NCBI RefSeq assembly: GCF_964213995.1
Contig: NC_135804.1
Span: forward strand, 93,558,001-93,622,000
Direction: 5' to 3'
Origin: Mustelus asterias
Taxonomy: Eukaryota
Length of the DNA: 64,000 bases
Positions 18,876 through 59,949 of the stretch are shown here, piece after piece. Numbering within the stretch: position 1 is the first letter of the stretch; each line of letters begins with the position of its first letter. The notes beneath the pieces were generated by a model. That model was not told the origin of the DNA and did not search any database. It saw only the letters and a list, made by a program, of their open reading frames with translations. The translations under genes were made by a program, and so were the position numbers.

Positions 18876-19344
18876 AAACCGAGATGAGGAGGAATTTCTT
18901 CAGCCAGAAGGTGGTGAATCAGTGGAATTCATTGCCACAGAAGGCTGTGGAGCCCAGGTCATTGTGTATACAAGACAGAGATATATAGGTTGTGGAATGT
19001 GAAGGGGATCAAAGGTTATGGGGAAAAAGCAGGAGAATGGGGTTGAGAAATAGATCAGCCATGATGGAATGGCGGAGCAGACTCGAGGGGCGAATGGCCC
19101 ACTAAAGGCATTGTACAAATGCAAACTTTCTTTTATAAAGGTACGACTTTGCTGCAAACTGGATTTAATGACAAGTTCTCATCAGCTTCCAGAATTTTAA
19201 ATCTTGGATACACACAAAATTATAGTATTTGCATCTAATGGAGTCGAAAGGTAGCAACAAACAGGTACCCGCTCATTGATATTGTCTAATGTTTGAACAT
19301 TTATCTAGATTTCATATAGCTTATTCACAGGTCCATGTCCATGA

Positions 19345-19577
19345 TAAAAGCAAATTACTGCGGATGCTGGAATCTGAAACCAAATGAGAAAATGCTGGAA
19401 AACCTCAGCAGGTCTGGCAGCATCTGTAAGGGGAGAAAAGAGCTGAAGTTTCGAGTCCAAACGGCCCTTTGTCAAAGCTTTTGACAAAGGGTCGTCTGGG
19501 CTCAAAAGATCAGCTCTTTTCTCTCCTTACAGATGCTGCCAGACCCGCTGAGATTTTCCAGCATTTTCTCTTTTGGT
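19345..19577. mobile_element. Fold-back PLE mini-element, family B
   Basis: Inverted arms 19378-19476 / 19480-19578; 33-nt tail 19345-19377; TSD TCCATGTCCATGA (19332-19344, 19578-19590). Same pLTR as the GIY-YIG-linked copy ending at 36880. Confidence 0.88.
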
Positions 19578-21552
19578 TCCATGTCCATGACTTTGGCACC
19601 TATGAAGGAACTGCCTGTTTACATGGGATTCTCTCTGCTACAAAGGACTTCAAAGGGCATTGGCATATTATAAAACTCCAACTCATTCCTGTTGTAGGAT
19701 TTCCAAACTGTCGAACATTGTATTTCTTCAGTCTTCCCCATCTCTTACAATCTTCATACATTAAAATCCAAACATTGGTTTTTATCCATTGTGATTTATC
19801 TCAAATGTTGATAATGTACTGTATGGGATTTGACCCTACAGCTATACTTCTTAAATTAAGAAGAAGCACTGGAGAATTGTACTAAATCACTATCATTAGA
19901 GGACAATAAGAGGGGAATCTTCTCTAGAGGATGGTCCATGGCTGCAGCGGTAACCTTGAAGTTACCTCCAGCTATTTGCTGGGCTTCAGCCTTGTAGGCT
20001 GCCTGTCAGCAATGTCCTTGTGGCATCCCCAAGTGGTGAATTAATCGCCACCAACTGGTGACCCAATGCTGCCAGATGAATAAACAGTGTCAGCCTGACC
20101 ACCCCCCTCACCCCATACCCCCTACCCCAGCAAGATTGTGTGGCCATGGGAATGAGACCCCTACATACAACTTTCAAAAAATCCCCACCCTCCTGCTCCA
20201 AAGCAGCATCTGCATCTACTTTGTGAGTATCCTTTATCAGCTAATTCATGCAGATTGTCACCTAATTGAAATAGTAATCCTAATGGTGGTAGGACACATA
20301 AAACTCTGTAACTTTGCCCAGGTGGGCGAGCTGACACATAGGTCAATTATATTGCTCGTCCTCAAGGAGTGTAAACCTCCCCCTTTATACCAGCTGCTGG
20401 AATTCACTTCTGAGTTTCCCCAAGGGACCAGGACTTGCAGGTCTTTGGATATAGTCATATAACAATGAATCCTGGCAGAATGAACATAAATATATGTGCT
20501 GTCAGTATACACGTAAGATGCATCATAAGACTATTTGAAGCCTAATTTGGTACTCATCCTTAAAAATGAATCTCAATGGCACCAACCAAATGAATTGCTG
20601 TCTTCCTGACTTTCTTCGCTGTGAGTGAATTTTACTATTGCAATATTTCAACTTGCACTTGCTGGAGTCCTAGAGGCGTTTGGGCTGGGCATAGCTGAGG
20701 ACTGAACACAGGCTCCAGGTTAAATTATGAGTAACCTATTGATTACTGACCCAATAATTGTTTCAGCCCAAGAGTTCCACTAGCTAAGTCTCACCGTGTC
20801 AAATAAATCCATTAATTAAGGATAAAACTGAGTGAACGAGTCCATTAACCAGGGACGACTCAAATTAACTTAATTCACAAATCAGGGACCAAAGTAATTT
20901 ATTCTATTTGTACCTCAGCTGGGAATAACGCTTTGAAATTATGCTCAACATTTCTCTCGGGTATCAATCTCTCAACTACATGGTCTGTAATTACTTTTAT
21001 ATCATCTGATTCAAAATTCTCTGTGGCGTTTTACCTTGATGTGGAGATGCCGGTGTTATCTCCAAGAAGATCGCGCACATCGAATTCTTACCGCTTTTTA
21101 CTTTGCATCCTTTCTCATTTATACACTGACTGTTTTTTTAATTTAAATCCCAATGCTAAACATGACAAGGAGAGTTTATCGCCACATTTTCCCAGTGGCA
21201 CTTTGTCCACTGGAAAAATACTGTAATGCATGTCAATAATTACACAATGTTGGTCAATGTAATGGTTAATTTGCCTTTGCAGGGCAGAACCCTATGATCA
21301 ACCATTGCATTAAAATGCAATTACATTACAATAAACATCTAATAGTAACTTTTGAAGAAGCGAAAACATTTTATACTTACTTTTCAGATTGCTCCTGACT
21401 CCTCAGTAGACTTCCTTCAGTAATCATGAACTGTCCAAGGTGTTACATTTTTACACCTTCCAAAACCCACATTAACACATAAAAATAGGATACAAGAGGG
21501 AAACACAATTTTCCTATGGTCCTCACAACGAGCATCTCACCCTCGGAAGAGA

Positions 21553-22703: not shown

Positions 22704-22844
22704 TATTGAGCTTTGACAAAGGGTCATCTGGATTCGAAATGTCAGCTCTTTTCTCTCCTTACAGATGCCACCAGACCTGCTGAGATTTTCCAGCGTTTTC
22801 TCTTTTGGTTTCAGATTCCAGCATCTGCAGTAATTTGCTTTTAC
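22704..22844 (+). mobile_element. Solo PLE pLTR, family B, with tail
   Basis: Matches the 19480 arm plus the tail; TSD GCAATGTCTTTAT / GCAGTGTCTTTAT (22691-22703, 22845-22857). Confidence 0.85.
22709..22747 (+). ncRNA. Minimal hammerhead ribozyme motif, U3-A8 core variant (PLE family B)
   Basis: agct-TTGACAA-a-GGGTC atctg GATTC-GAAA-TG-T-C-agct; stem I AGCT/AGCT, GUC cleavage triplet. Confidence 0.65.
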
Positions 22845-31789: not shown

Positions 31790-33210
31790 CCCTTGACAGA
31801 GTAAGATTGTATGTGTCATATACAGTGGACAACAACAAGGGAAAAAGTGCTCAGGAGGATATTGAAGCGATCCCCCTGAGCAGTCCAGGCAGTGAAACCT
31901 CATTCTAAGTAGGCATATGGTCCTCTCAATTGTGGAGGCATGACTGCAGTTGTAGATCTTGATGTGGAGATGCCGGCGTTGGACTGGGGTAAACACAGTA
32001 AGAAGTTTAACAACACCAGGTTAAAGTCCAACAGGTTTATTTGGTAGCAAAAGCCACACAAGCTTTCGAAGCTCTAAGCCCCTTCTTCAGGTGAGTGGGA
32101 ATTCTGTTCACAAACAGAGTTTATAAAGACACAGACTCAATTTACATGAATAATGGTTGGAATGCGAATACTTACAACTAATCAAGTCTTTAAGAAACAA
32201 AACAATGGGAGTGGAGAGAGCATCAAGACAGGCTAAAAAGATGTGTATTGTCTCCAGACAAGACAGCCAGTGAAACTCTGCAGGTCCACGCAACTGTGGG
32301 CGTTACAAATAGTGTGACATGAACCCAATATCCCGGTTGAGGCCGTCCGCGTGTGTGCGGAACTTGGCTATCAGTTTCTGCTCAGCGACTCTGCGCTGTC
32401 GTGTGTCGCAAAGGCCGCCTTGGAGAACGCTTACCCGAATATCAGAGGCCGAATGCCCGTGATATTTCGCTGAGCAGAAACTGATAGCCAAGTTCCGCAC
32501 ACACGCGGACGGCCTCAACCGGGATATTGGGTTCATGTCACACTATTTGTAACGCCCACAGTTGCGTGGACCTGCAGAGTTTCACTGGCTGTCTTGTCTG
32601 GAGACAATACACATCTTTTTAGCCTGTCTTGATGCTCTCTCCACTCCCATTGTTTTGTTTCTTAAAGACTTGATTAGTTGTAAGTATTCGCATTCCAACC
32701 ATTATTCATGTAAATTGAGTCTGTGTCTTTATAAACTCTGTTTGTGAACAGAATTCCCACTCACCTGAAGAAGGGGCTTAGAGCTTCGAAAGCTTGTGTG
32801 GCTTTTGCTACCAAATAAACCTGTTGGACTTTAACCTGGTGTTGTTAAACTTCTTACTGTTGTAGATCTTCCCAGCTGCAGTCTTGGGTCTCTCAGTGGT
32901 GTCATCAGCCACCTTTTCAGTGGATAACCTTTGCCCCCAAGGAGTCAGCCACCCAAGTGAACTGGAGCAGTGAAGAACCAGGGACCAGGGAATGAAGAAG
33001 GATGTAGGCATCATAGCAGCTTATATAAACCTGGCACAAGCCTGCATTATCTGACACTTGTAGTCACACAATCTGGACATCGTAAACAGAAAGGGCCTCC
33101 ACTTTCTCACATGCATGCAGTCAATGGCTCTTTGGATGCAGAGAAATCCTGTAATTGCAGTGAAGCCTCTGACTCACTCTGCCTGGTTAGCTTCATTCGT
33201 CCTGAAGCTA
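31790..33210 (-). pseudogene. Harbinger DDE transposase remnant interrupted by a PLE palindrome
   Basis: GFLCIQRAIDCMHV, VQIVCDYKCQIMQACAR, LGGKGYPLKRWLMTPLRDP and, after the insertion, YNCSHASTIERTICLLRMRFHCLDCSGGSLQYPPE: HARBI1-like motifs with frameshifts. Confidence 0.85.
31961..32860. mobile_element. 5'-truncated PLE (family A) with inverted duplication: 394-bp arms, 78-bp spacer, 34-nt tail
   Basis: Arms 31995-32388 / 32467-32860; GIY-YIG C-terminus HSASDIRVSVLQGGLCDTRQRRVAEQKLIAKFRTHADGLNRDIGFMSHYL; HHR motifs 32057-32093(-) and 32762-32798(+); TSD GTTGTAGATCTT (31949-31960, 32859-32870). Confidence 0.93.
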
Positions 33211-35107: not shown

Positions 35108-35606
35108 TCATAGAATCCCTACAGTGCAGAAGGAGGCCATTTGGCCCATTGAGTCTGCACTGACCCCAATCCCACCTAGGCCCTATTCCCATGACCCTAC
35201 ATATTAATTACCCCTGCCAATCCCCGACACTAAGGGGCAATTTATCATGACCAATCCACCTAACCCGCACATCTTTGGACTGTGGGAGGAAACCGGAGCA
35301 CCCGAAGGAAACCCACACAGGCACAGGGAGACCTGAGGCTGGAGTTTCCCCTATTTTATCCCACCTTGCCTTACTTTTTCTCCCCCTTTGCTTCCCCTTT
35401 CCCCCTTTTTCTCAATTTTACCTCTGTCCCACCCATTTCCCCCATCCCCTCCGAACCTTCATCTGTCACAGCTTACCCTCTGATTTCAACTTCTCTGGCA
35501 TTTGGCCATTCACATCCTTTATTCTCTCTGTGGCCTGCTATTAGCAGTCCCTGGATCCCTGGTGCTGTGAGACAGCAGTGCTAACCACTGTGCCACCGTG
35601 CTGCCC
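35108..35606 (-). mobile_element. HE1/V-SINE-like SINE containing a 203-bp foreign insertion (35345-35547)
   Basis: SINE tail/body 35108-35344 and head 35548-35606 flank a PLE 3'UTR segment. Confidence 0.85.
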
Positions 35607-36242: not shown

Positions 36243-36880
36243 GCCCACTTGTCTGTCCTTGGCCTGCTACAATATTCCAGTGATGCTCAACGCAAACTGG
36301 AGGACCAGCATCTCATCTTCTGGCTCGGCACGTTACAGCCTTCCAGTCTCAACATCGAATTCAACAACTTCAGATGATTAGCCCTACTCCACTCAAACCC
36401 CTTTGTTTTCATTTTATTTAATTTTGAACTGTTCTGTACCTTTTATTTCTTTATTGTCTTTCTTTATTTTCCTTTTTCTCCCTTGCCACTCTTTCCCCTA
36501 TTTTATCCCACCTTGCCTTACTTTTTCTCCCCCTTTGCTTCCCCTTTCCCCTTTTTCTCAATTTTACCTCTCTCCCACCCATCTCCCCCATCCCCTCCGA
36601 ACCTTCATCTGTCACAGATTACCCTCTGATTTCAACTTCTCTGCCGTTTGGCCATTCACATCCTTTATTCTCTCTGTGGACTGCTATTAGCAGCCTTTCC
36701 CCTTGTTTTTGTGGCTATGACTCATCCTTAATTCCCTCACCCTGCAGTATAAATATCTCCCACTTTCTGTGCCTTTAAGCTTTGACAAAGGGTCATCTGG
36801 ACTCAAAACATCAGCTCTTTTCTGTCCTTACAGATGCTGCCAGACCCGCTGAGATTTTCCAGCATTTTCTCTTTTGGTTT
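36243..36880 (+). mobile_element. 5'-truncated PLE (family B): GIY-YIG C-terminus, 3'UTR and pLTR
   Basis: 36243-36377 encodes AHLSVLGLLQYSSDAQRKLEDQHLIFWLGTLQPSSLNIEFNNFR*; decayed HHR at 36778-36816; ends at TTTTGGTTT without the tail. Confidence 0.85.
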
Positions 36881-37654
36881 ATAAATCAGATTAATTGTTG
36901 TATTCAAACAACGAGTATAATCAAATTAAATATGATGGCAAATATGGCGACAAAGTATCATACACTCACTTGCTTTCGAGCATCTTGGGACTCCACTAAA
37001 TACTCACCGATATAGGAAATTTTCTGAAGCTGTTTCTAAATCTCATTAATAGGTAAAGCATCCTTTCCGTAACATTTAATTTGTAACAATGCTGAAATAC
37101 AACTACGTCTGATGTAACTGCTGTATAACTCTCTAATTAACACAGCATGTTTAGTTACAGAATAAAACTATCCCATCAAATTTATCAAACTCAAGAAATT
37201 CTCCTGATAGTTTTCTATTTCTATAGCAGCCATTTATTTTGTAAGCAAGATTGCCAATTTAGCAATCTATTATAGGCAGTTTTGTTGTGCGCATTCATAC
37301 CTTAAAACACATTTCAAATTATCCTTAAAAACACATTTCAAATTATCCTATCAGTCTGGGTTGGACTTGAGATGAAAGACTGGTGATGAATCCACTTAGC
37401 CCAGTATCTACTGCAGCAACCATGCAAAATAGCTCTCCGAGACTACTTCTTTATGATAGTACATTATTATTCAGTATTGTACATTTTCCTTCCTAGGGAT
37501 CATTTATCTACATCTCTTGATCTGCAAGACAACTACAAGGTTGAAATTTTTTGGTCTTTGCTTCCATTTTCAAGATGTATATAGAATCATAGGATCCATA
37601 GAGTGCAGAACCAGGCCATTCAGCCCATCAAGCCTGCACAGACAACAATCCCAA

Positions 37655-38502
37655 ACAAACCCTCACACTCACACAAACACTCACACTCACCCTCTCTCTC
37701 ACACACACACACACTCACCCTCTCTCTCACACATACACTCACCCTCTCTCTCACACACACTCACCCTCTCTCTCACACACACACTCACCCTTTCTCTCAC
37801 ACACACACTCACCCTCTCTCTCACACACACACTCACCCTCTCTCTCACACACACACACTCACCCTCTCTCTCACACGCACACTCACCCTCACACACACAC
37901 TCACCCTTTCTCTCACACACACACTCACCCTCTCTCTCACACAGACTCACCCTCTCTCTCTCGCACACACTCACCCTCTCTCTCACACACACACTCACCC
38001 TTTCTCTCACACATACACTCACCCTCTCTCTCACACACACTCACCCTCTCTCTCACACACACGCTCACCCTCTCTCTCACACACACACTCACCCTCTCTC
38101 TCACACACACTCCCTCTCTCACACACACTCACCTTCTCTCTCACACACACTCACCCTCTTTCACACACACACTCACCCTCTCTCACATACACTCACTCCC
38201 TCTCTCACACACACTCACCCTCTCTCACACACACACTCACCCTCTCTCTCACACACACACTCACCCTCTCTCACACACACTCCCTCTCTCACACACACTC
38301 ACCTTCTCTCTCACACACACTCACCCTCTTTCACACACACACTCACCCTCTCTCACATACACTCACTCCCTCTCTCACACACACTCACCCTCTCTCTCAC
38401 ACACACACTCACCCTCTCTCACATACACTGACTCCCTCTCTCACACACACTCACCCTCTCTTTCACACACACACTCACCCTCTCTCTCATACACACACTC
38501 AC
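37655..38502. repeat. CA/CT minisatellite (~20-24 bp unit CACACACTCACCCTCTCTCT) embedded in a minus-strand SINE (37580-38638)
   Basis: Tandem units; SINE tail on the left (ATAGAATCATAGG..GGCCATTCAGCCCATC) and SINE body on the right (TATTTACCCTGCTA..CACATCTTTGGACTGTGG). Confidence 0.9.
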
Positions 38503-39094: not shown

Positions 39095-39945
39095 AAAGAT
39101 CATTTAGATCTGAAACGTTAACTGTTTCTCTGTCCGTAGATGCTGCCAGACATGCTGGGCGGGATTTTATGGCCTCGCTCGGGCGAGACCGAGGTCAACA
39201 GAGATTTCCGTTGTCGGAGCCTCGCCCATGCTGACTCCCTGGCGGGGGGGGGGGGGGGGGGGGGGGGCGGGGGGGGTGGCAGAGTTCCGGCCACTGAGTT
39301 TTTCCAGCATTTTCTGTTATTTCAGATTTCAAGCATTCGCAGTATTTTGGTTTCATCTGATAAATTTGTCATATTTCCTTTGCCCCTGACCTATCCCTGT
39401 TCTTCTATTCCACCCCACTTCCTCCACCCCCTTTCTAACTATATAATTCTGCGCATTTTTTGCTCCAATTCTGTGGGAGGATCAGTTAGACCCGAAACAT
39501 TAACTCTGTTTCGCTCCACGGATGCTGCCAGACCTGCTGAGTGTATCCAGCATTTTCTGTTTTTATTTCAGATTCCCAGCATCCGCGGTGTTTTGCTTTT
39601 ACATAAACAAAGAGCATTGGTCTTCACTGCCCATGTACGCTGCCACAGGAATGCAACTGGAAAACCTCAACATTTGATTAGCTTTAAAGACACAGCCATC
39701 ATTTTGTATCATGACAATACAGATTTGCTATTTTCAGACCTTAGCTTTCAGAGATAAAAACTGAAATTATACAGCATCTGTGGACACAAAAGAAAGGCTA
39801 AATTTTGAGGTTTAGATCCTCCATCAGAATTGACAAAATATCACCACCCAAAGATATTTTCTTTTAAAAAAAATAGTACTTTCTCTCTTTACAGATTTCC
39901 AGCATATCTGTTCTTATTTCACGGTTTCAACATTCGCAGTATTTT
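39095..39945. mobile_element. Cluster of older PLE pLTR remnants (39095-39345 +, 39470-39601 +, 39755-39830 -, 39830-39945 +) with a Harbinger MITE at 39157-39292
   Basis: GAAAC(G/A)TTAACT..GATGCTGCCAGAC..CCAGCATTTTCTG..TTTCAGATT..CAGCAT..GCAGTATTTT motifs related to family B; MITE ends GGGCGGGATTTT / TTCCGGCC, flanks GCT/ACT. Confidence 0.7.
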
Positions 39946-40302: not shown

Positions 40303-42107
40303 TTAAGGTTATTATCATCACAAATGAATATAAGCCATCTCGCACACAATCTCTGGTATATGATCACACTCTATTTGGCAGTTGATTGACTGGATAATTA
40401 TACGATGTATGATTGCATAAAGTTGACAAAATGTGAATAGAACCCAACAGAGGAGAAGAAAATTACTGCCAAGAAAGAGACTCCTTTTGTGAAAAAGACA
40501 ACCAACTAAAAATGGCTGAGACACTCAACAAAAAAAAATTGTTTAGTACATTTCCTTAGAAAGGAATCTAGAATGAGGGAAGCTAAACTGTGCAGGCAGG
40601 AATGTAATTATACTCAGAGCAGAGGTGGCAATACACAATACTCTGTATTGAAGAAGCTAATCTCAGTTTGGTTATTAATGAAGGCACTCCAGTTGGTCGC
40701 CCTGATGAGAAAGGGGAAAAATGAAAAAGGTCACTGCTCCCAATTCTTGTCCGATGAAAGAGTGTGTATGTAAATACCTGCCACGTGTAAATAACCTGTC
40801 AGGGTTCAACGTGAATAACAACCATTTAAGTGAGGTATTGGAGAGTGACTAGCTTCCCAGCAAGGAGTCAATGCCTCAGCTGAAGAGAAGGGAAGGGAGA
40901 ATGAGTAAAATGTCATCTAAAAGAAAGCGGATGAATGCAAAAATAGACAATGAAGTATGAGCGGTTCGTATCACCTAACCCAAATGGATAAACTGATCAA
41001 ATCTTTAACTTAGCCAGAATTATCTAATTCCTTTTTGGATGAGAGATTTTAGTCAGTGCATTAGCTGCCAGTCTATTCCAAACGTCAAAGATTAAACTGA
41101 CCAACATCTGCTGCTTGGAGGTTCCTGCAGCTTCCAGTCCTTTGGTGCTGTCTGTTCAATTTGCACAGCAAAACTACAGTCTCAATTTTCTCCATTACTT
41201 TTAAATCTTAGACCATACCCACTGCTAATCTTTAATTCTAAAAAAATCTTCCATTCTTCGAGCAGCTCAAAGGGCTTCTGACTTCGCAAGATTTTCAAAC
41301 CGGAAAGCTTTTAATGAAAACAATGACACTGAAATACATTTGTGCCTAAAAACAGACAGACAGACAGGGATTGCGAGGATTGATCCCTGCTCCTGAATGA
41401 GTTGGTGCGTGTAATATTGGACTTGGGTCTCATTAACTTAGAGCCAGTGAGCTGTGAACACCAAACAAACATTGCCAGGGTGCCCACTGAATGACTCAGA
41501 AATTGGGCTTCTATAATGCCAGCTGCCGTCACGGTGGTTGGGAGGATAGCAGTGAGCGGGCGGATGGGTAGCGTTGGCTGTGATTAAGAGGATGCCTCGC
41601 ATTCACGGTGACTGGGGAAGTTTGGGGTCAAGTTCATCGTTATGAGGATAGGGTGTGACCAACTGCAGTCTGAATGACTTGAATGTGGAGCTGGAAGGAG
41701 TAGTGTGCTGCTCCTCCATCCTCAGTACATTCTAAACCAGGCTCGTCCAACTTTTTCCCACTGGGGGCGGGGGGGCGAATACATACATTTTTCTCATGCT
41801 GTCAGGTGGGGGAGGGACAAAATGAGCAAATTCTGGAAAAGTAAAGTTCCACAACATTAAACATGAATTCCAAAGGAAAATGCTGATGTATGAAAAGAGA
41901 TAACTTGCTGAGCAAAAAAAAGTCACACCAATAAATTGATAATCAAAAAATGGGTAATAAATAAAGATGAGTGTGAAAGAGAGAGTGTGTGTGTCCAGCT
42001 CACTCCCAGTCCCAGGGTGTTCACTCACTGACCCTCTGAAGGAGCCTGTTAGTGTGACGGGTGGGGATAATAATAATAACCCTGAGACTGGGAATCTTTC
42101 TCTTACA

Positions 42108-45100
42108 AACACACACACTCACCCTCTCTCCCACACTCACCCTCTCCCTCACACACACTCACCCCCTCTCACACACACTCACCCCCTCTCACACACACTC
42201 ACCATCTCTCTCATACACACACTCACCCTCTCTCACACACACTCACCATCTCTCTCACACACACATTCACCCTCTCTCACTCACACACTGACCCTCTCTC
42301 TCACACAAACTCACCCTCTTCTCACACACACACTCACCCTCTCTCTCACACACACACTCACCTCTCTCTCACACACACATTCACCCTCTCCTCACACACA
42401 CAGACTGACCTCTCTCACACACAACCTCACCACTCTCTCACACACACCCCCTCACACCACAACACCCCACACACACCTCACCCTCACACACACACCACCC
42501 CTCACCCCACACACACCACCCTCCTCTCACACACACTCATTCACCCTCTCTCACACACACCCCCCTCTCTCACACACACTCACCCTCTCTCTCACACACT
42601 CCCCTCCTCACACACACACCCTCTCTCTCACACACACTCACCCCTCTCTCACACTCACCCCTCTCTCACACACACACTCCACCCTCCCCCTCCTCACACC
42701 CACACTCACCCTCTCTCTCTCTCACACACTCACCCTCTCTCACACACACCTCACCCTCTCCACACACACTCACCCCTCCTCTCACACACACTCCACCCTC
42801 CTCTCACACACACCTCACCCCCTCACCCTCACACCTCTCCCTCACACTCACCCTCTCTCACACACACACTCACCCTCTCTCACATCACACACCTCACCCT
42901 CTCTCACACACACATCACCCCTCCACACACACACTCACCCTCACTCTCACACTCACCCTCTCTCTCACACAGACATTCACCCTCTCTCTCACACACTCCC
43001 CCTCTCTCTCACACACACCCACCCTCTCTCACACACACTCACCCTCTCTCACACACACACCCCTCTCTCACACACACACTCACCATCTCTCTCACACACA
43101 CACTCACCCCTCTCTCTCACACTCACACTCACCCTCTCCCTCACACTCACACTCACACTCACCCTCTCTCTCACACACACACTCGCCCTCTCTCTTACAC
43201 TTACACTCACCCTCTCTCTCACACACACACACACCCTCTCACACACACACTCACCTTCTCTCTCACACACACTCACCCTCTCTCACACTCACACTCACCC
43301 TCTCTCAGAAACACTCACCCTCTCTCTCACACACACACTCATCCCCTCTCTCTCACACTCACACTCACCCTCTCTCTCACACACACACTCTCCCTCCTCT
43401 CTCACACACTCACCCTCTCTCTCACACACACTCATCCTCTCTCACACACACACTCTCCTTCTCTCTCACACACACACTCACCCCCTCTCACACACACACA
43501 CCACCTCTCACACACACACCTCACCCCCTCTCACACACACACACCTCCTCTCACACACACACTCACCCCCTCTCACACACACACACCTCCTCTCACACAC
43601 ACTCACCCCCTCTCACACACAAACACTCTCTCTCTCACACACACTCACCCTCTCTCTCTCCCACACTCACCCTCTCTCTCACACACTCACCCTCTCTCGC
43701 ACACTCACACTCACCCTTTCTCTCACACACACTCACCCTCTCTCTCACACTCACACGCACCATCTCTCACACACACTCATCCCCTCTCTCTCACACTCAC
43801 ACTCACCATCTCTCTCACACACACGCTCACCCCCTCTCTCTCACACTCACACTCACCCTCTCTCTCACACACACACTCACCCTCTCTCTCACATACACAC
43901 TCACCCTCTCTCTCACACACACATCACCCTCTCACACACACACTCACCTTCTCTCTCACACTCACCCTCTCTCTCACACAGACATTCACCCTCTCTCTCA
44001 CACACTCCCCTCTCTCTCACACACACTCACCCTCTCTCCCACACTCACCCTCTCCCTCACACACACTCACCCCCTCTCACACACACTCACCCCCTCTCAC
44101 ACACACTCACCATCTCTCTCATACACACACTCACCCTCTCTCACACACACTCACCATCTCTCTCACACACACATTCACCTCTCTCACTCACACACTGACC
44201 CTCTCTCTCACACAAACTCACCCTCTCTCTCACACACACACTCACTCTCTCTCACACACACTCACCCTCTCTCTCACACACACATTCACCCTCTCTCACT
44301 CACCACACTGACCCTCTCTCACACNNNNNNNNNNNNNNNNNNNNNNNNNNNNNNNNNNNNNNNNNNNNNNNNNNNNNNNNNNNNNNNNNNNNNNNNNNNN
44401 NNNNNNNNNNNNNNNNNNNNNNNNNNNNNNNNNNNNNNNNNNNNNNNNNNNNNNNNNNNNNNNNNNNNNNNNNNNNNNNNNNNNNNNNNNNNNNNNNNNN
44501 NNNNNNNNNNNNNNNNNNNNNNNNACACACACTCACCCTTTCACACACAAACACTCACCCTCTCTCTCTCCCACACACTCACCCTCTCTCACACACACAC
44601 TCACCCTCTCTCACACACACTCTCCCTCTCTCTCGCACACACTCACCCTCTCCTCACACACACACTCACCCTCTCTCACACACACACACTCACCCCCTCT
44701 CACACACACACACTCACCCTCTCCCTCACACAAACACCCACCCTCCTCTCACACACACCACCCCTCTCTCACACACACACACTCACCCTTTCACACACAC
44801 ACACTCACCCTCTCCCTCACACAAACACCCCCTCTCTCTCTCACACACACACCCACCCTCTCTCTCACACACACACACTCACCCTTTCACACACACACAC
44901 ACTCACCCTCTTTCTCACATACACACTCGCCCTCTCTCACAAACACTCACCCCATCTCTCACACACACACTCTCCCCTCTCTCACACACACACCCACCCT
45001 CTCTCTCACACACACACACTCACCCTTTCACACACACACACTACCCCATCTCTCACACACACACTCTCCCTCTCTCACACACACACCCACCCTCTCTCTC

Positions 45101-46407
45101 ACACACACACACTCACCCTTTCACACACACACACTCACCCTCTTTCTCACATACACACTCGCCCTCTCTCTCACAAACACTCACCCCATCTCTCACACAC
45201 ACACTCTCCCTCTCTCTCACACACACTCTCCCTCTCTCTCGCACACACTCACCCTCTCTCTCACACACACACACTCTCTCTCACACACTCCCCCTCTCTC
45301 TCGCACACACTCACCCTCTCTCTCACACACACACACTCTCTCTCACACACTCACCCCATCTCTCACACACACACTCTCCCTCTCTCTCACACACACTCTC
45401 CCTCTCTCTCGCACACACTCACCCTCTCTCTCACACACACTCACCCTCTCTCTCACACACACTCACCCTCTCTCTCACACACACTCACCCCTCTCTCACA
45501 CACACACACTCACCCTCTCTCTCCCACACACTCACCCTCTCTCTCCCACACACTCACCCTCTCTCTCACACACACACTCACCCTGTCTCTCACACACACT
45601 CACCCTCTCTCTCACAGACACTCACTCTCTCTCTCACACACACACTCACCCTCTCTCTCACACACACACTCACCCTGTCTCTCACACACACACTCACCCT
45701 GTCTCTCACACACACTCACCCTCTCTCTCACACACACACTCACCCTGTCTCTTACACACACTCACCCTCTCTCTCACATTCACTCTCTCTCACACACACA
45801 CACTCACCCTCTCTCTCACACACACTCACCCTGTCTCTCACACACACTCATCCTCTCTCTCACAGACACTCACTCTCTCTCACACACACACAGTCACCCT
45901 CTCTCTCGCACACACACACAAACACTCTCTCTCTCACACACACTCACCCTCTCTCTCTCACACACTCACCCTCTTTCTCACACACATGTACACAGCACTC
46001 TGTCTCTCACACACACACATTCAAACAGTCTTCTGTCTGACACACTCCGCCCTCTATCTCTCTCACACACAGACACAGAGCCCTCTGTTTCTTTCAGGCA
46101 CACACACACTGACAGCCCTCTATCCCTTACACACAGCCCTCTATCTTTCTCTCTCCACACACACCCACACGCACATCCAGCCTTCTGTCTCTTTCCGATG
46201 CACACACACACGCAGACAGCTCTCTGTCTCACACACACAGCCCTCTATCTCTCCCACTCTCTCTCTCTCACACACACACACACCCACAGCCCTCTGTGTC
46301 TGTCTCTCTCTCTTTCTCACACACACACACGCGCGCATACAGCCCTCTGTCTCTTTCAGGTGCACACACATACAGACAACCCCCTGTCCCTCACACACAA
46401 CCCTCTA

Positions 46408-46438
<31 letters not shown>

Positions 46439-46524
46439 GACACAGACTCACACACCCCTCATTCTCTTTCAGGTGCACATACACACATACAGACAACTCT
46501 CTGTCTCTCACACACAGCCCTCTG

Positions 46525-46560
<36 letters not shown>

Positions 46561-46562
46561 AG

Positions 46563-46595
<33 letters not shown>
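42108..46595. repeat. Large CA/CT minisatellite array (CACACTCACCCTCTCTCT-type), grading into ACAGCCCTCT variants after ~45990
   Basis: Direct inspection; spans the assembly gap. Confidence 0.95.
44325..44524. other. Assembly gap (200 N)
   Basis: Run of exactly 200 N, probably a fixed-size scaffolding gap. Confidence 0.99.
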
Positions 46596-46872
46596 TGATG
46601 CGCAATTGATTCACACGGGAGGCTAGGACGTACCCGGGAATAAAGGCATTTATTCAAACAAGATTGGAGCACACTACTTAACAATACTATCCCAGACTAA
46701 GGGCTACTAGGAAGTAGCTGTGACCTTTATACTCCTGTAAGAAGGCGGAGCCGAACGGAGTGTACCACATAAACAATAATAACAGGTGGAACACCCAAAC
46801 CCTAACCCCAACAGTAACAAGAGTAACATATGTACAAGTACCCATAGTGGTAACCATCTATGGTTCACCACA
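46596..46872 (-). mobile_element. Short solo LTR (277 bp) inserted in (CA)n
   Basis: TG...CA termini with TGATG/CACCACA near-inverted ends; CACAC on both sides; TATAAA (~46726) and AATAAA (~46648) on the minus strand. Confidence 0.75.
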
Positions 46873-57470: not shown

Positions 57471-58289
57471 TCAAGCAAGTTACAAACAGGAGGACCCTCA
57501 GCCCCTTGTCGTTCTACATCCAGAAAAAATTGGAAACTGGGGTGGGTGAGAAATGCAGAAATGGGAGAGAAAATGCCAACTGCAGATCCATCATGGTGGA
57601 AGGAAAAGCGCAATTTGAAACCTGGCTGTTTTTCTACAAGCCATGCCAGCCTCCTTTCACATTCAGATTAATGCAGGATTTTCATCAGTGTAGATCCCAA
57701 GGTAAAACATTCCAGGGCTTACTGTGCATGTGTTGGCCCAGCATCAGATTGTCTTCCTTACATCAATCACCTGCACTGTCAGAATCTCCAAAGGTATGCC
57801 CAGTCTTACCACTTTGTGTGGTGTTATTTAAATAGCAGCAGCAACCAAACGTTGTGAAGGAAAATACTGGAAGAAATAAAATGTGCAAAATTGATGGCCA
57901 GGATTTTCTGTTCCTGTTTGTATGGGGCGTGTTTGGCAATGGGAGCGGAAAATGTCACAGTGGAGTGATAGCTTGCTGCGATCGCCCACCATCCCTGTCA
58001 GTGGTGGGTCATGCTTCCGGGAATCTTATTAAAATACATTAGCATCTCATTAACGCCAGTATCATACTCTCCATCACCAAACCCATCCACAGCAGCAGGA
58101 TGTCAGAATCACCACTAGTTTCAAAAGACGAGTACCTGGCAAGCAGACCTCGGAGCAGAGGATGGGGGTAAGCGCAGCGCTCACAGAGCAGCTGTGTGTG
58201 TTCAGTGGGGAGAAGGGTTTCTGGGTTTGAATTGAGGCTTGATTCTGAGGGTTCCACGATTTGAATCTGGCGTACTGGGATAAGACTCG

Positions 58290-58845
58290 GGAGACTGGGG
58301 ATTTGACTCGAAGGGAGACCGGGCCAAGGCCTGAAGGGAGACCGGGGCAAGGCCCGAAGGAAGACCAGGCCAAGGCCCGAAGGGAGACCACGGCAAGGCC
58401 TGAAGGGAGACCAGGGCAAGGCCCGAAGGGAGATTTGGGTAAGGCTCGAAGAGAAACTGGGGTAAGGCTCGAAGGGAGACCGGGGCAAGGCCTGAAGGGA
58501 GACCGGGCCAAGGCTCGAAGGGAGACCGGGGATTTGACTTGAAGGGAGACCGGGTCAAGGCTCGAAGGGAGATCGGAGATTTGACTTGAAGGGAGACTGG
58601 GGTAAGGCTCGAAGGGAGACCGGGTAAGGCCCGAAGGGAGACAGGGGCAAGGCCCGAAGGGAGACCGGGGCAAAGCCTGAAGGGAGAATGGGCCAAGGCC
58701 CGAAGGGAGACCGGGGTAAGGCTCAAAGGGAGACTAGGCCAAGGCTCGAAGAGAGGCCAAGGATTTGACTTGAAGGGAGACTGGGGTAAGGCTCGAAGGG
58801 AGACCAGGGTAAGGCTCAAAGGGAGATTGGGGTAAAATTGGAAGG
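58290..58845. repeat. 23-bp GC-rich minisatellite CGAAGGGAGACCGGGGCAAGGCY
   Basis: About 24 tandem copies with recurrent GATTTGACT and GGGTAAGGCT variants. Confidence 0.92.
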
Positions 58846-59949
58846 GTGCCAAGGGGTTGACTCCAGGGTACCACGAGTCTGACTGCAGCTTACTGAGGGC
58901 TGACTCCAGGGTACTAGGGACCTACTTGGGTGAGACCCAGGGGTTTGATTGTCAAGTGTGAAAACTTCTTGAGGATGCCTTCTGCTGCCGGGCTATGGAC
59001 TTCTTATAAGGGTCTCACATAGGGAAGCCTGGAGCAATGCCTTGGGTGGCGGTGAGTCATCATGGATTGACAGTTCCACTCAAATATTGGGGGGGTGGGG
59101 CAGTCTGGGGTGCGCATCTGGGGTGCGCGTCTGGATGTTGCCAAAGACGAGACTGATTGAAAGACCTGTCAGTGATCAGTACCCTGTCACAGCTGAGACA
59201 GTTCAGCCATAACTCAATTGACATGCCTGGAATCAAACTACTCACTCAATTATGCCCACTCAAGCACCACTTAAGTGTATGAGTGCTACTGATCACTACT
59301 CAGCACTTAACACTGATGCATTGGCTTCCAAAATCGATGACTGCCATGGTGTGCCTACACCATTGCCTGACTGGGCAAGCAATGAATATCACATTAGAGT
59401 GTTGGCAATGGTACACTACCCGAGAAGAGCTCCTAATCCTTGGTTGTGTGCTGAGGTGCAGAGTAACAAGTGCCCCCCATAGATCCGGTTGAGCTCAAGG
59501 CCTTGGAGAGAATCTTAGGACAAATGCCTGTGCCTGAGGTGAGAGCTCAGGATGCAGTATAGAGAGGCCAAAGCTGTGCCACTCAGCCATGTGGTGTGGG
59601 ACAGGGTGGTCTGGGATGTTGCAAAAGCAGAATGCAAAGTAAGGACAGGGCATCAATGTTGTGACCAGGACATGAGTCAGTGTGGGCTTTGAGAGGCAGT
59701 TTCAGATGATGAATGGACAAAGAGTGGTTCTCAGCAGACAAATGCTACCTGCCAAGTCTCGCTCTTCTACGCTGCAGTGAGGAGACTGTCAGGGATATGG
59801 AGCCTGGTAATCTCGCTGTCATTTTTCTTGCATATAGGCAGGAGAGAAGAGGAGGAAAATGTTAACAGAGGCGCCTGACTCACCAAAGGCAGGAACAGAA
59901 CCATGAAGAGGAAGAGGTTGCAGGGCCTTCTTCACATGCCGAGGATGAG

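Follow-up and report, generated by a model that had tools for sequence, protein, structure and literature searches.

Whether the hammerhead motifs of Penelope-like elements (PLEs) are selected for catalysis or ride along with the element is a background question in the accessible parts of two earlier accounts (PMC8557442 and PMC11167929). It is raised here by a stretch of the Mustelus asterias genome (NC_135804.1, 93,558,001 to 93,622,000, forward strand; 64,000 nt, called the window) in which hammerhead-like motifs have the core UUGACAA. The original prediction held that this core has a compensatory U3-A8 pair in place of C3-G8 throughout one repeat family, family B, and that the double change indicates selection on catalysis. 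We followed these claims in the window and in searches over the 3.68-Gb genome. The window contains four family B copies, at 22709-22747 (+), 19441-19479 (-), 19480-19515 (+), and 36778-36816 (+), all with the layout of stem I AGCU, the UUGACAA core, an extra A, a 5-bp stem II, GAAA or AAAA, a 4-nt palindrome, C, and AGCU. As described at the outset, U3, A8, and the UC cleavage site (U16.1-C17) were present in four of four, and GAAA was found in two, 22709 and 19441(-); the others have AAAA, a CpG-type loss of G12. In the family A copies of the window, the core is CUGAUGA or CUGAAGA, in agreement with the CUGA(U/A)GA first reported for them. The contrast between the families was thus read correctly, but family A is distant and a poor comparator, and the proper one is the sister subfamily B2 described below.

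A 30-nt family pattern with at most 3 mismatches had 2 matches in the window versus 0 in 100 shuffles, and a general hammerhead descriptor had 48 kept matches (151 before pattern-selected loci were removed) versus 0 in three block shuffles. An Rfam scan of the window with E values up to 1 returned no hammerhead family for the family A or B copies; its output consisted of miRNA-type matches on inverted repeats, all far below the gathering score, and these were rejected. Standard published descriptors use '^cuganga' and would miss a U3-A8 family, as had been foreseen.

The copy at 22709..22747 (+) is a minimal type I hammerhead motif of subfamily B1 (defined below) that reads, in order, AGCU, UUGACAA, A, GGGUC, AUCUG, GAUUC, GAA, AUGU, C, and AGCU. 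Stem I lies at 22709-22712/22744-22747, U3 at 22713, A8 at 22718, the extra A at 22720, stem II at 22721-22735, GAA at 22736-22738, the stem III palindrome, decayed to AUGU, at 22739-22742, and C17 at 22743; the predicted cut falls between 22743 and 22744. The entire short insertion, 22709..22843 (+), runs from ribozyme base +1 to the distal 3' end cluster (+135) and has neither promoter nor ORF. Lacking a promoter, and with its stem II weakened and its palindrome decayed, this copy is a relic, a decayed 135-nt fragment. Two more B1 copies form an inverted pair centered on the 5' strand of stem I. The long arm, 19343..19479 (-), carries the hammerhead at 19441-19479 with U3-A8, GAAA, a single stem II mismatch, and a palindrome altered to ACUU; the short arm, 19480..19581 (+), has U3-A8, has lost G12, and ends at the proximal 3' cluster.

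The fourth copy, 36243-36880, starts within the end of an ORF. The C-terminal 44 codons of the element ORF (the endonuclease end, 5' truncated) lie at 36243..36374 (+), and this ORF end by itself gave no Pfam match; the 3' pLTR, including ribozyme and tail, follows at 36375..36880 (+). Within the pLTR, the TATAAATA box at 36748..36755 (+) has its first T 30 nt 5' of the ribozyme first base, which puts the predicted transcription start at 36778. The B1 hammerhead there, 36778..36816 (+), has U3-A8, and both of its CpGs have decayed (G12 lost, palindrome ACAU). Elsewhere in the window, 39440-39601 (+) and 39294-39357 hold a fifth, older family B relative with a core decayed to CUGUGGG, stem II GGAUC/GACCC, a tail as in family B, and a TATA-like box upstream. 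A 203-nt piece at 35345-35547, 96.6% identical to pLTR 36492-36693 and located some 1.1 kb upstream of it within a different repeat, is a local duplication. Long CA/CT-rich and 23- to 24-nt tandem arrays occupy 37530-38400, 42100-46600, 58270-58850, and 600-1340, and the window includes 200 N bases.

What kind of element carries the motif is indicated by a locus (L128) with a 414-aa stop-free stretch, in which RT motifs and a VYCIRC...LYIGE endonuclease motif were read by eye; Pfam RVT_1 matched it at an E value of 0.0024, under the curated cut-off. Its RT and endonuclease are joined by the linker CNRRRCSTC (CX4CxxC). A CX2-5CxxC linker at this point is given as a Neptune feature, found also in Nematis and Naiad, in the accessible part of PMC8557442. 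Judged by its sequence, the element is an endonuclease-positive PLE of the Neptune type, with the clade assigned from the linker alone. Among the best 30 RT-region matches, 16 had a same-strand ribozyme downstream in the locus, 12 of them shown as UUGACAA. The 5' end is kept in two loci (L339 and L340), each with a pLTR, TATA, a U3-A8 ribozyme, a UTR, an ATG at +172, and a broken ORF. U3-A8 ribozymes therefore occur on both sides of the RT and endonuclease ORF, in 5' pLTR copies and in 3' copies; none of 30 long copies had both ribozymes in direct orientation or an intact ORF. In a sample of 75 arms, the 3' ends formed two clusters about 35 nt apart, at about +97 to +107 and at +133 to +136, which is the PLE tail signature.

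A non-LTR retrozyme, that is, a tandem hammerhead satellite, was rejected since the copies lie scattered, are truncated or inverted, and are linked to ORF sequence. We also considered and rejected an intron in the 5' UTR: a polypyrimidine-AG stands directly before the ATG, but no convincing donor was seen. At L339:4200-4235 and L340:4070-4105, a branch-point-like sequence, a polypyrimidine tract, and CAG adjoin the ORF ATG, and the tail of this element has two further pyrimidine-AG tracts; a 5' UTR intron as in Drosophila Penelope is possible.

Covariation of positions 3 and 8 was examined next. A 33-nt pattern that left positions 3, 7, and 8 and two loop bases free had 3,785 matches genome-wide, a set biased to less decayed copies because the pattern requires two intact CpGs. 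The states were U3-A8 in 2,422, C3-G8 in 884, C3-A8 in 288, U3-G8 in 84, and others in 107, giving an odds ratio of about 88 for 3-8 concordance. There are two sister subfamilies, B1 with U3-A8 and B2 with C3-G8. When 96 loci were assigned to B1 or B2 by tail bases alone, all 20 U3-A8 loci fell in B1 and all 25 C3-G8 loci in B2; the mixed states were distributed as 23 B2 and 2 B1 for C3-A8, 15 B1 and 10 B2 for U3-G8, and one G3-G8 locus in B2. The claim that U3-A8 extends throughout family B was therefore too wide, in that B2 has the same stem II and tail but C3-G8.

Most C3-A8 copies are accounted for by the CpG at C7-G8 of B2, where G8A is found in 20% of copies. On the B1 background, U3-G8 stood at about 1.6% and C3-A8 at no more than about 2.2%, which agrees with the 3.5% and 2.0% transition rates of the tail. 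Over the whole genome, C3-G8 on the full B1 background was observed once versus about 0.9 expected from decay, and U3-A8 on the full B2 background 9 times versus about 9 expected, with four of the nine in one duplicated cluster. Where a mixed-state copy had a second (inverted) arm, the partner arm had the subfamily base in 9 of 10 cases. Because mixed states appear only at decay-level rates, U3-A8 is the state of the source element and not CpG decay. Independent variation of the two positions had been named as what would speak against the original prediction; instead, they covary between subfamilies both in the genome-wide counts and in the tail classification.

These data also bear on the idea that A8 is post-insertion CpG decay of CUGACGA, that U3 is ordinary decay, and that the pair is an artefact of having four copies to look at. 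C7-G8 is indeed a CpG and decays in this way in B2. However, tail-selected B1 copies covering the core were U3-A8 in 49 of 55 and C3-G8 in 0 of 55, and the reciprocal UUGAUGA on the B1 loop had 9 matches versus 2,422 for U3-A8. The U3-A8 counts rule this idea out, and we give it almost no credence. An older related family, C, used as the outgroup, has C3-G8 in 19 of 25 copies, C3-A8 in 4, G3-G8 in 2, and U3 in none; therefore, the U3-A8 swap is derived. B1 is also the less diverged subfamily (3.2%, 34/37 rows, versus 5.8%, 55/59 rows, for B2). In family A, we found 37 scattered U3-A8 matches that make up no subfamily and hence no second origin, so a single origin is all that was found in this genome.

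No source subfamily with C3-A8 or U3-G8 was found. A U3-G8 wobble intermediate subfamily was rejected: 41 of the 84 U3-G8 matches lie on the B1 loop, and that share of B1 is below the tail A-to-G rate. Nine of the 41 are further decayed, with tail divergence of 3.8% versus 2.9%, and a small older U3-G8 intermediate may have existed. Four near-identical B1/B2 chimeric inverted copies (L284-L287; G000:C8, 8.64-8.89 Mb) probably go back to the segmental duplication of a single recombined insertion. Another group of loci (L260, L261, L263, and L266-L268) combines C3-G8 and C17-A1.1 on the B2 background; the B2 loop is found in 8 matches, where decay would give about 1 to 2, so these copies may form a minor sub-branch of B2.

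Sampling of 60 fixed places (599.8 kb) found 4 ribozyme-bearing B1 copies, which corresponds to about 25,000 in the genome (95% interval, 6,700 to 63,000), and a 32-nt tail motif had 9,267 exact genome matches. Both figures bear out the high copy number first proposed; vertebrate ribozyme motifs are thus undercounted by tens of thousands with CUGANGA descriptors and with Rfam.

To compare the subfamilies, we used majority sequences from 64 B1 and 20 B2 copies. Within the ribozyme, 6 of 39 sites differ (3, 8, two loop bases, N17 as C/U, and 1.1 as U-A/U-G), none of them disruptively, while 21 of the 39 non-TATA bases just upstream differ. Six of 39 has a P value of 8e-7 under the upstream rate and of 0.17, i.e., unremarkable, under the ORF divergence of about 23%. 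In 16 hand-picked copies of B1, B2, and C (13 distinct; three families are few independent events), pairing was kept in 96% of cells and reached at best 47% when slid. Two-sided changes were found at stem I 2.2-1.2, at stem II 10.1-11.1, and at the 3-8 pair. U4, G5, A6, A9, A13, A14, A15.1, and U16.1 are invariant in the three families, where N7, loop 2, and N17 vary, and G12 is absent solely in decayed copies. The B1 majority sequence has the minimal type I core (U3-A8, GAAA, and UC), covarying stems, the extra nucleotide between 9 and 10.1, and G10.1-C11.1, and its stem III region is the palindrome ACGU, which is dimer compatible. Monomer folding energy was not unusual against shuffles (z of -1.2 to +0.3) and does not discriminate. 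Given the conserved core, the covarying helices, and the literature on U3-A8 function, constraint on the active fold is likely.

Two other accounts of the swap have to be set against these comparisons. In one, U3 and A8 would be unrelated transitions in a single successful master whose ribozyme was dead or weakened, with the pairing due to chance. The swap is a single event, G8A is favored by its CpG, and two transitions tend to yield a Y-R pair in any case. Against this, the remaining nine bases of the core and every helix are intact next to the 21 of 39 flank changes, neither mixed state has a source subfamily, and the same swap recurs in Schistosoma PLEs and elsewhere; we regard this account as improbable. 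In the other, the region would be protein coding and C3U and G8A would be tolerated as synonymous changes of Leu and Thr codons. Both are synonymous in the open frame ALTKG, but B1 and B2 otherwise differ there mostly by nonsynonymous changes, the first plausible ORF ATG (+172) belongs to a different frame and is preceded by a single ATG (+57), and loop 2 of family C varies in length by 1 to 3 nt, all of which makes a coding explanation scarcely credible.

The interpretation first given is upheld in part: constraint on the fold is likely, but reading selection on catalysis from the double change alone was too strong. That change is modest evidence because it is one evolutionary event and G8A falls in a mutable CpG, and the conservation of the entire core with covarying stems is the better evidence. 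The B1/B2 pair, with a core base-pair swap and thousands of copies that separate source state from decay, provides clean comparative support for constraint.

Folding predictions suggest what the swap may have done. With C3-G8, the B1 core segment would read CUGACG and could pair in full with CGUCAG, which spans the cut site, in a 6-bp misfold. On the B1 background, the misfold is predicted to lie below the hammerhead-compatible fold by 5.1 kcal/mol for C3-G8 and by 1.5 kcal/mol for U3-A8; in this monomer prediction, the fold compatible with a hammerhead is only a minor conformation. Relative to C3-G8, which would form this perfect duplex with the C17-A1.1 of B1, U3-A8 is thus predicted to weaken the misfold.

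To place the ribozyme on the transcript, we examined the promoter and the ends of copies. TATAAA stands 30 nt before the ribozyme first base in both B1 and B2, although 13 of the 24 spacer sites differ between them. With patterns that leave out TATA, 40 of the 42 TATAAA matches of the B1 set were at the 30-nt offset, as were those of at least 12 true B2 copies (the B1 and B2 pattern sets overlap). The 5' ends came from the sample of 75 arms, which is tail selected and covers 68 loci from the first 100 of the 9,267 tail matches, at the start of contig C1. Nineteen arms began at +1, 40 within -5 to +5, 16 further upstream, and 19 at +6 or later, some of these late starts being indel artefacts; a single arm of the 75 began at the cut site, +36. 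We infer that transcription starts at the ribozyme first base, 30 nt after the TATA box. The cluster at +1 and the near absence of ends at the cut site mean that most templates were likely uncut transcripts, although the palindrome AGCU at +1 may itself favor junctions there, which counts against a run-off reading.

Taken together, these results point to the motif probably being a minimal type I hammerhead of PLE subfamily B1 whose source carried U3-A8, with the swap kept for self-cleavage and with uncut RNA as the main template. The need of the ribozyme to remain capable of self-cleavage likely explains why the swap was kept. In this scenario, G8A would have come first, probably by deamination of the C7-G8 CpG, and C3U would then have restored the pair. 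The transcript would begin at +1 with the ribozyme as its first 39 nt. Since the monomer lacks stem III, two ribozymes would have to pair, through the ACGU palindrome, between the 5' and 3' pLTRs of one transcript or between two RNAs, probably with help from the element protein. A cut after C35 would remove a capped 35 nt. Reverse transcription would act mainly on uncut RNA, starting at +100 or +135 and running off at the capped +1, and would leave short and inverted copies such as 22709; the individual copies now in the genome are decaying relics. Cleavage would then serve RNA fate (processing, translation, or turnover) and most likely not formation of the template 5' end.

The same ends could instead indicate that a hammerhead-like fold was kept for a noncatalytic role, such as protein binding, a downstream promoter element, or an RT run-off signal, with negligible cleavage in vivo. 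Most copies start at +1 with the motif uncut, minimal metazoan hammerheads are weak cleavers, and, in the accessible part of the anole study (PMC11167929), ribozyme mutants left in vitro insertion unimpaired and the data contained no RNA ending at the cut site. We nevertheless consider this role unlikely: the unpaired core bases are those that never vary across B1, B2, and C, the 3-8 pair belongs to the active conformation in the text available from PMC3088659, and the anole PLE ribozyme cleaves with protein, again per PMC11167929. Returning to self-cleavage as the preferred reading, a more specific version is possible but doubtful, namely that the hammerhead is a protein-triggered decapping or fate switch on a TATA-driven transcript, with uncut RNA copied and cut RNA diverted and with C3U, G8A, U17C, and A1.1 having coevolved against the misfold. 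If it is true, comparing B1 with B2 offers a natural experiment, already in place, on the purpose of PLE ribozymes; in any event, the contrast between the sister subfamilies and the map of 5' ends make PLE ribozyme function directly testable.

The U3-A8 variant itself is already known from Schistosoma PLEs and from natural hammerheads. Cervera and De la Pena (2014) described about 1,300 U3-A8 minimal hammerheads in Schistosoma PLEs (Cercyon) with a dedicated descriptor (PMC4209133). As far as that text goes, B1 resembles S. mansoni Cercyon in the swap, the pLTR location, the extra nucleotide 9/10.1, G10.1-C11.1, the palindromic 15.2-16.2, the mostly single and truncated copies, and being missed by a CUGANGA descriptor. 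Unlike Cercyon, B1 is of the Neptune type, resides in a vertebrate-size genome, is one homogeneous subfamily with a C3-G8 sister, and has a shorter stem II (5 bp). Perreault et al. (2011) reported that natural hammerheads covary from C3-G8 to U3-A8 and cited such pairs as active in vitro (PMC3088659); in its section on U3-A8, the variant is tied neither to PLEs nor to the minimal, stem-III-less fold, unlike B1.

For the Anolis Poseidon element PAc, the accessible text of Frangieh et al. (2024; PMC11167929) states that single mutants at 3 or 8 abolish cleavage and that the double mutant partly rescues it, that the tail is set by two sites at which RT starts, that RT copies mainly uncut RNA, that the ribozyme depends on protein, and that ribozyme mutants are without effect on PLE insertion in vitro. 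B1 shares with PAc a minimal PLE hammerhead, two 3' end clusters, and the uncut-template reading, and its 5'-end pile-up at the ribozyme first base instead of the cut site is genomic support for that in vitro result. PAc differs in having C3-G8 and an ORF start inside stem II, whereas the B1 ribozyme lies in the 5' UTR, upstream of the ATG at +172. Naiad PLEs thrive without canonical hammerheads according to the part of PMC8557442 that treats them, which counts against a needed role for the ribozyme.

TATA plus Inr is described for pLTRs of the rotifer Adineta vaga (PMC3846280) and a TATA-less internal promoter for Drosophila Penelope (PMC2377424). These PLEs and B1 have in common, within the accessible portions of both papers, a promoter in the pLTR and inverted 5' junctions with palindromes; a start site at the ribozyme first base with copy 5' ends mapped there is absent from those portions. 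What is new here is the TATA box that precedes the ribozyme start by 30 nt in both subfamilies, together with the 5'-end map. Within the full-text literature (most subscription journals and Repbase/Dfam entries lie outside it), we found neither the B1 family, nor a shark U3-A8 family, nor copy ends mapped to the ribozyme first base. A preprint (bioRxiv 10.64898/2026.07.22.740005) covers, in its available part, one chondrichthyan genome, and its supplements may bear on the novelty of the family.

Family A gave several further observations. A CX4CxxC linker also occurs in an ORF fragment of this family in L128, and a label of Poseidon was therefore dropped. By descriptor scan of random regions (L130-L189), family A comprises several subfamilies with N7 as A, C, G, or U and N17 as A, C, or U, the scan excluding G17 by design; one variant, CUGACGA with N17 as A, has near-identical copies. 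Window 31947-32860 is a very young family A insertion with 394-nt inverted arms that are 100% complementary; its hammerheads, at 32089(-) and 32765(+), have the canonical core CUGAAGA. At window 32731-32764 and at many other loci, the core adjoins an initiator-like motif, CCACTCAC, that follows a TATA-like stretch at a distance of about 30 nt. Short inverted family A copies center at the CCACTCAC motif, and promoter-ribozyme coupling may be general.
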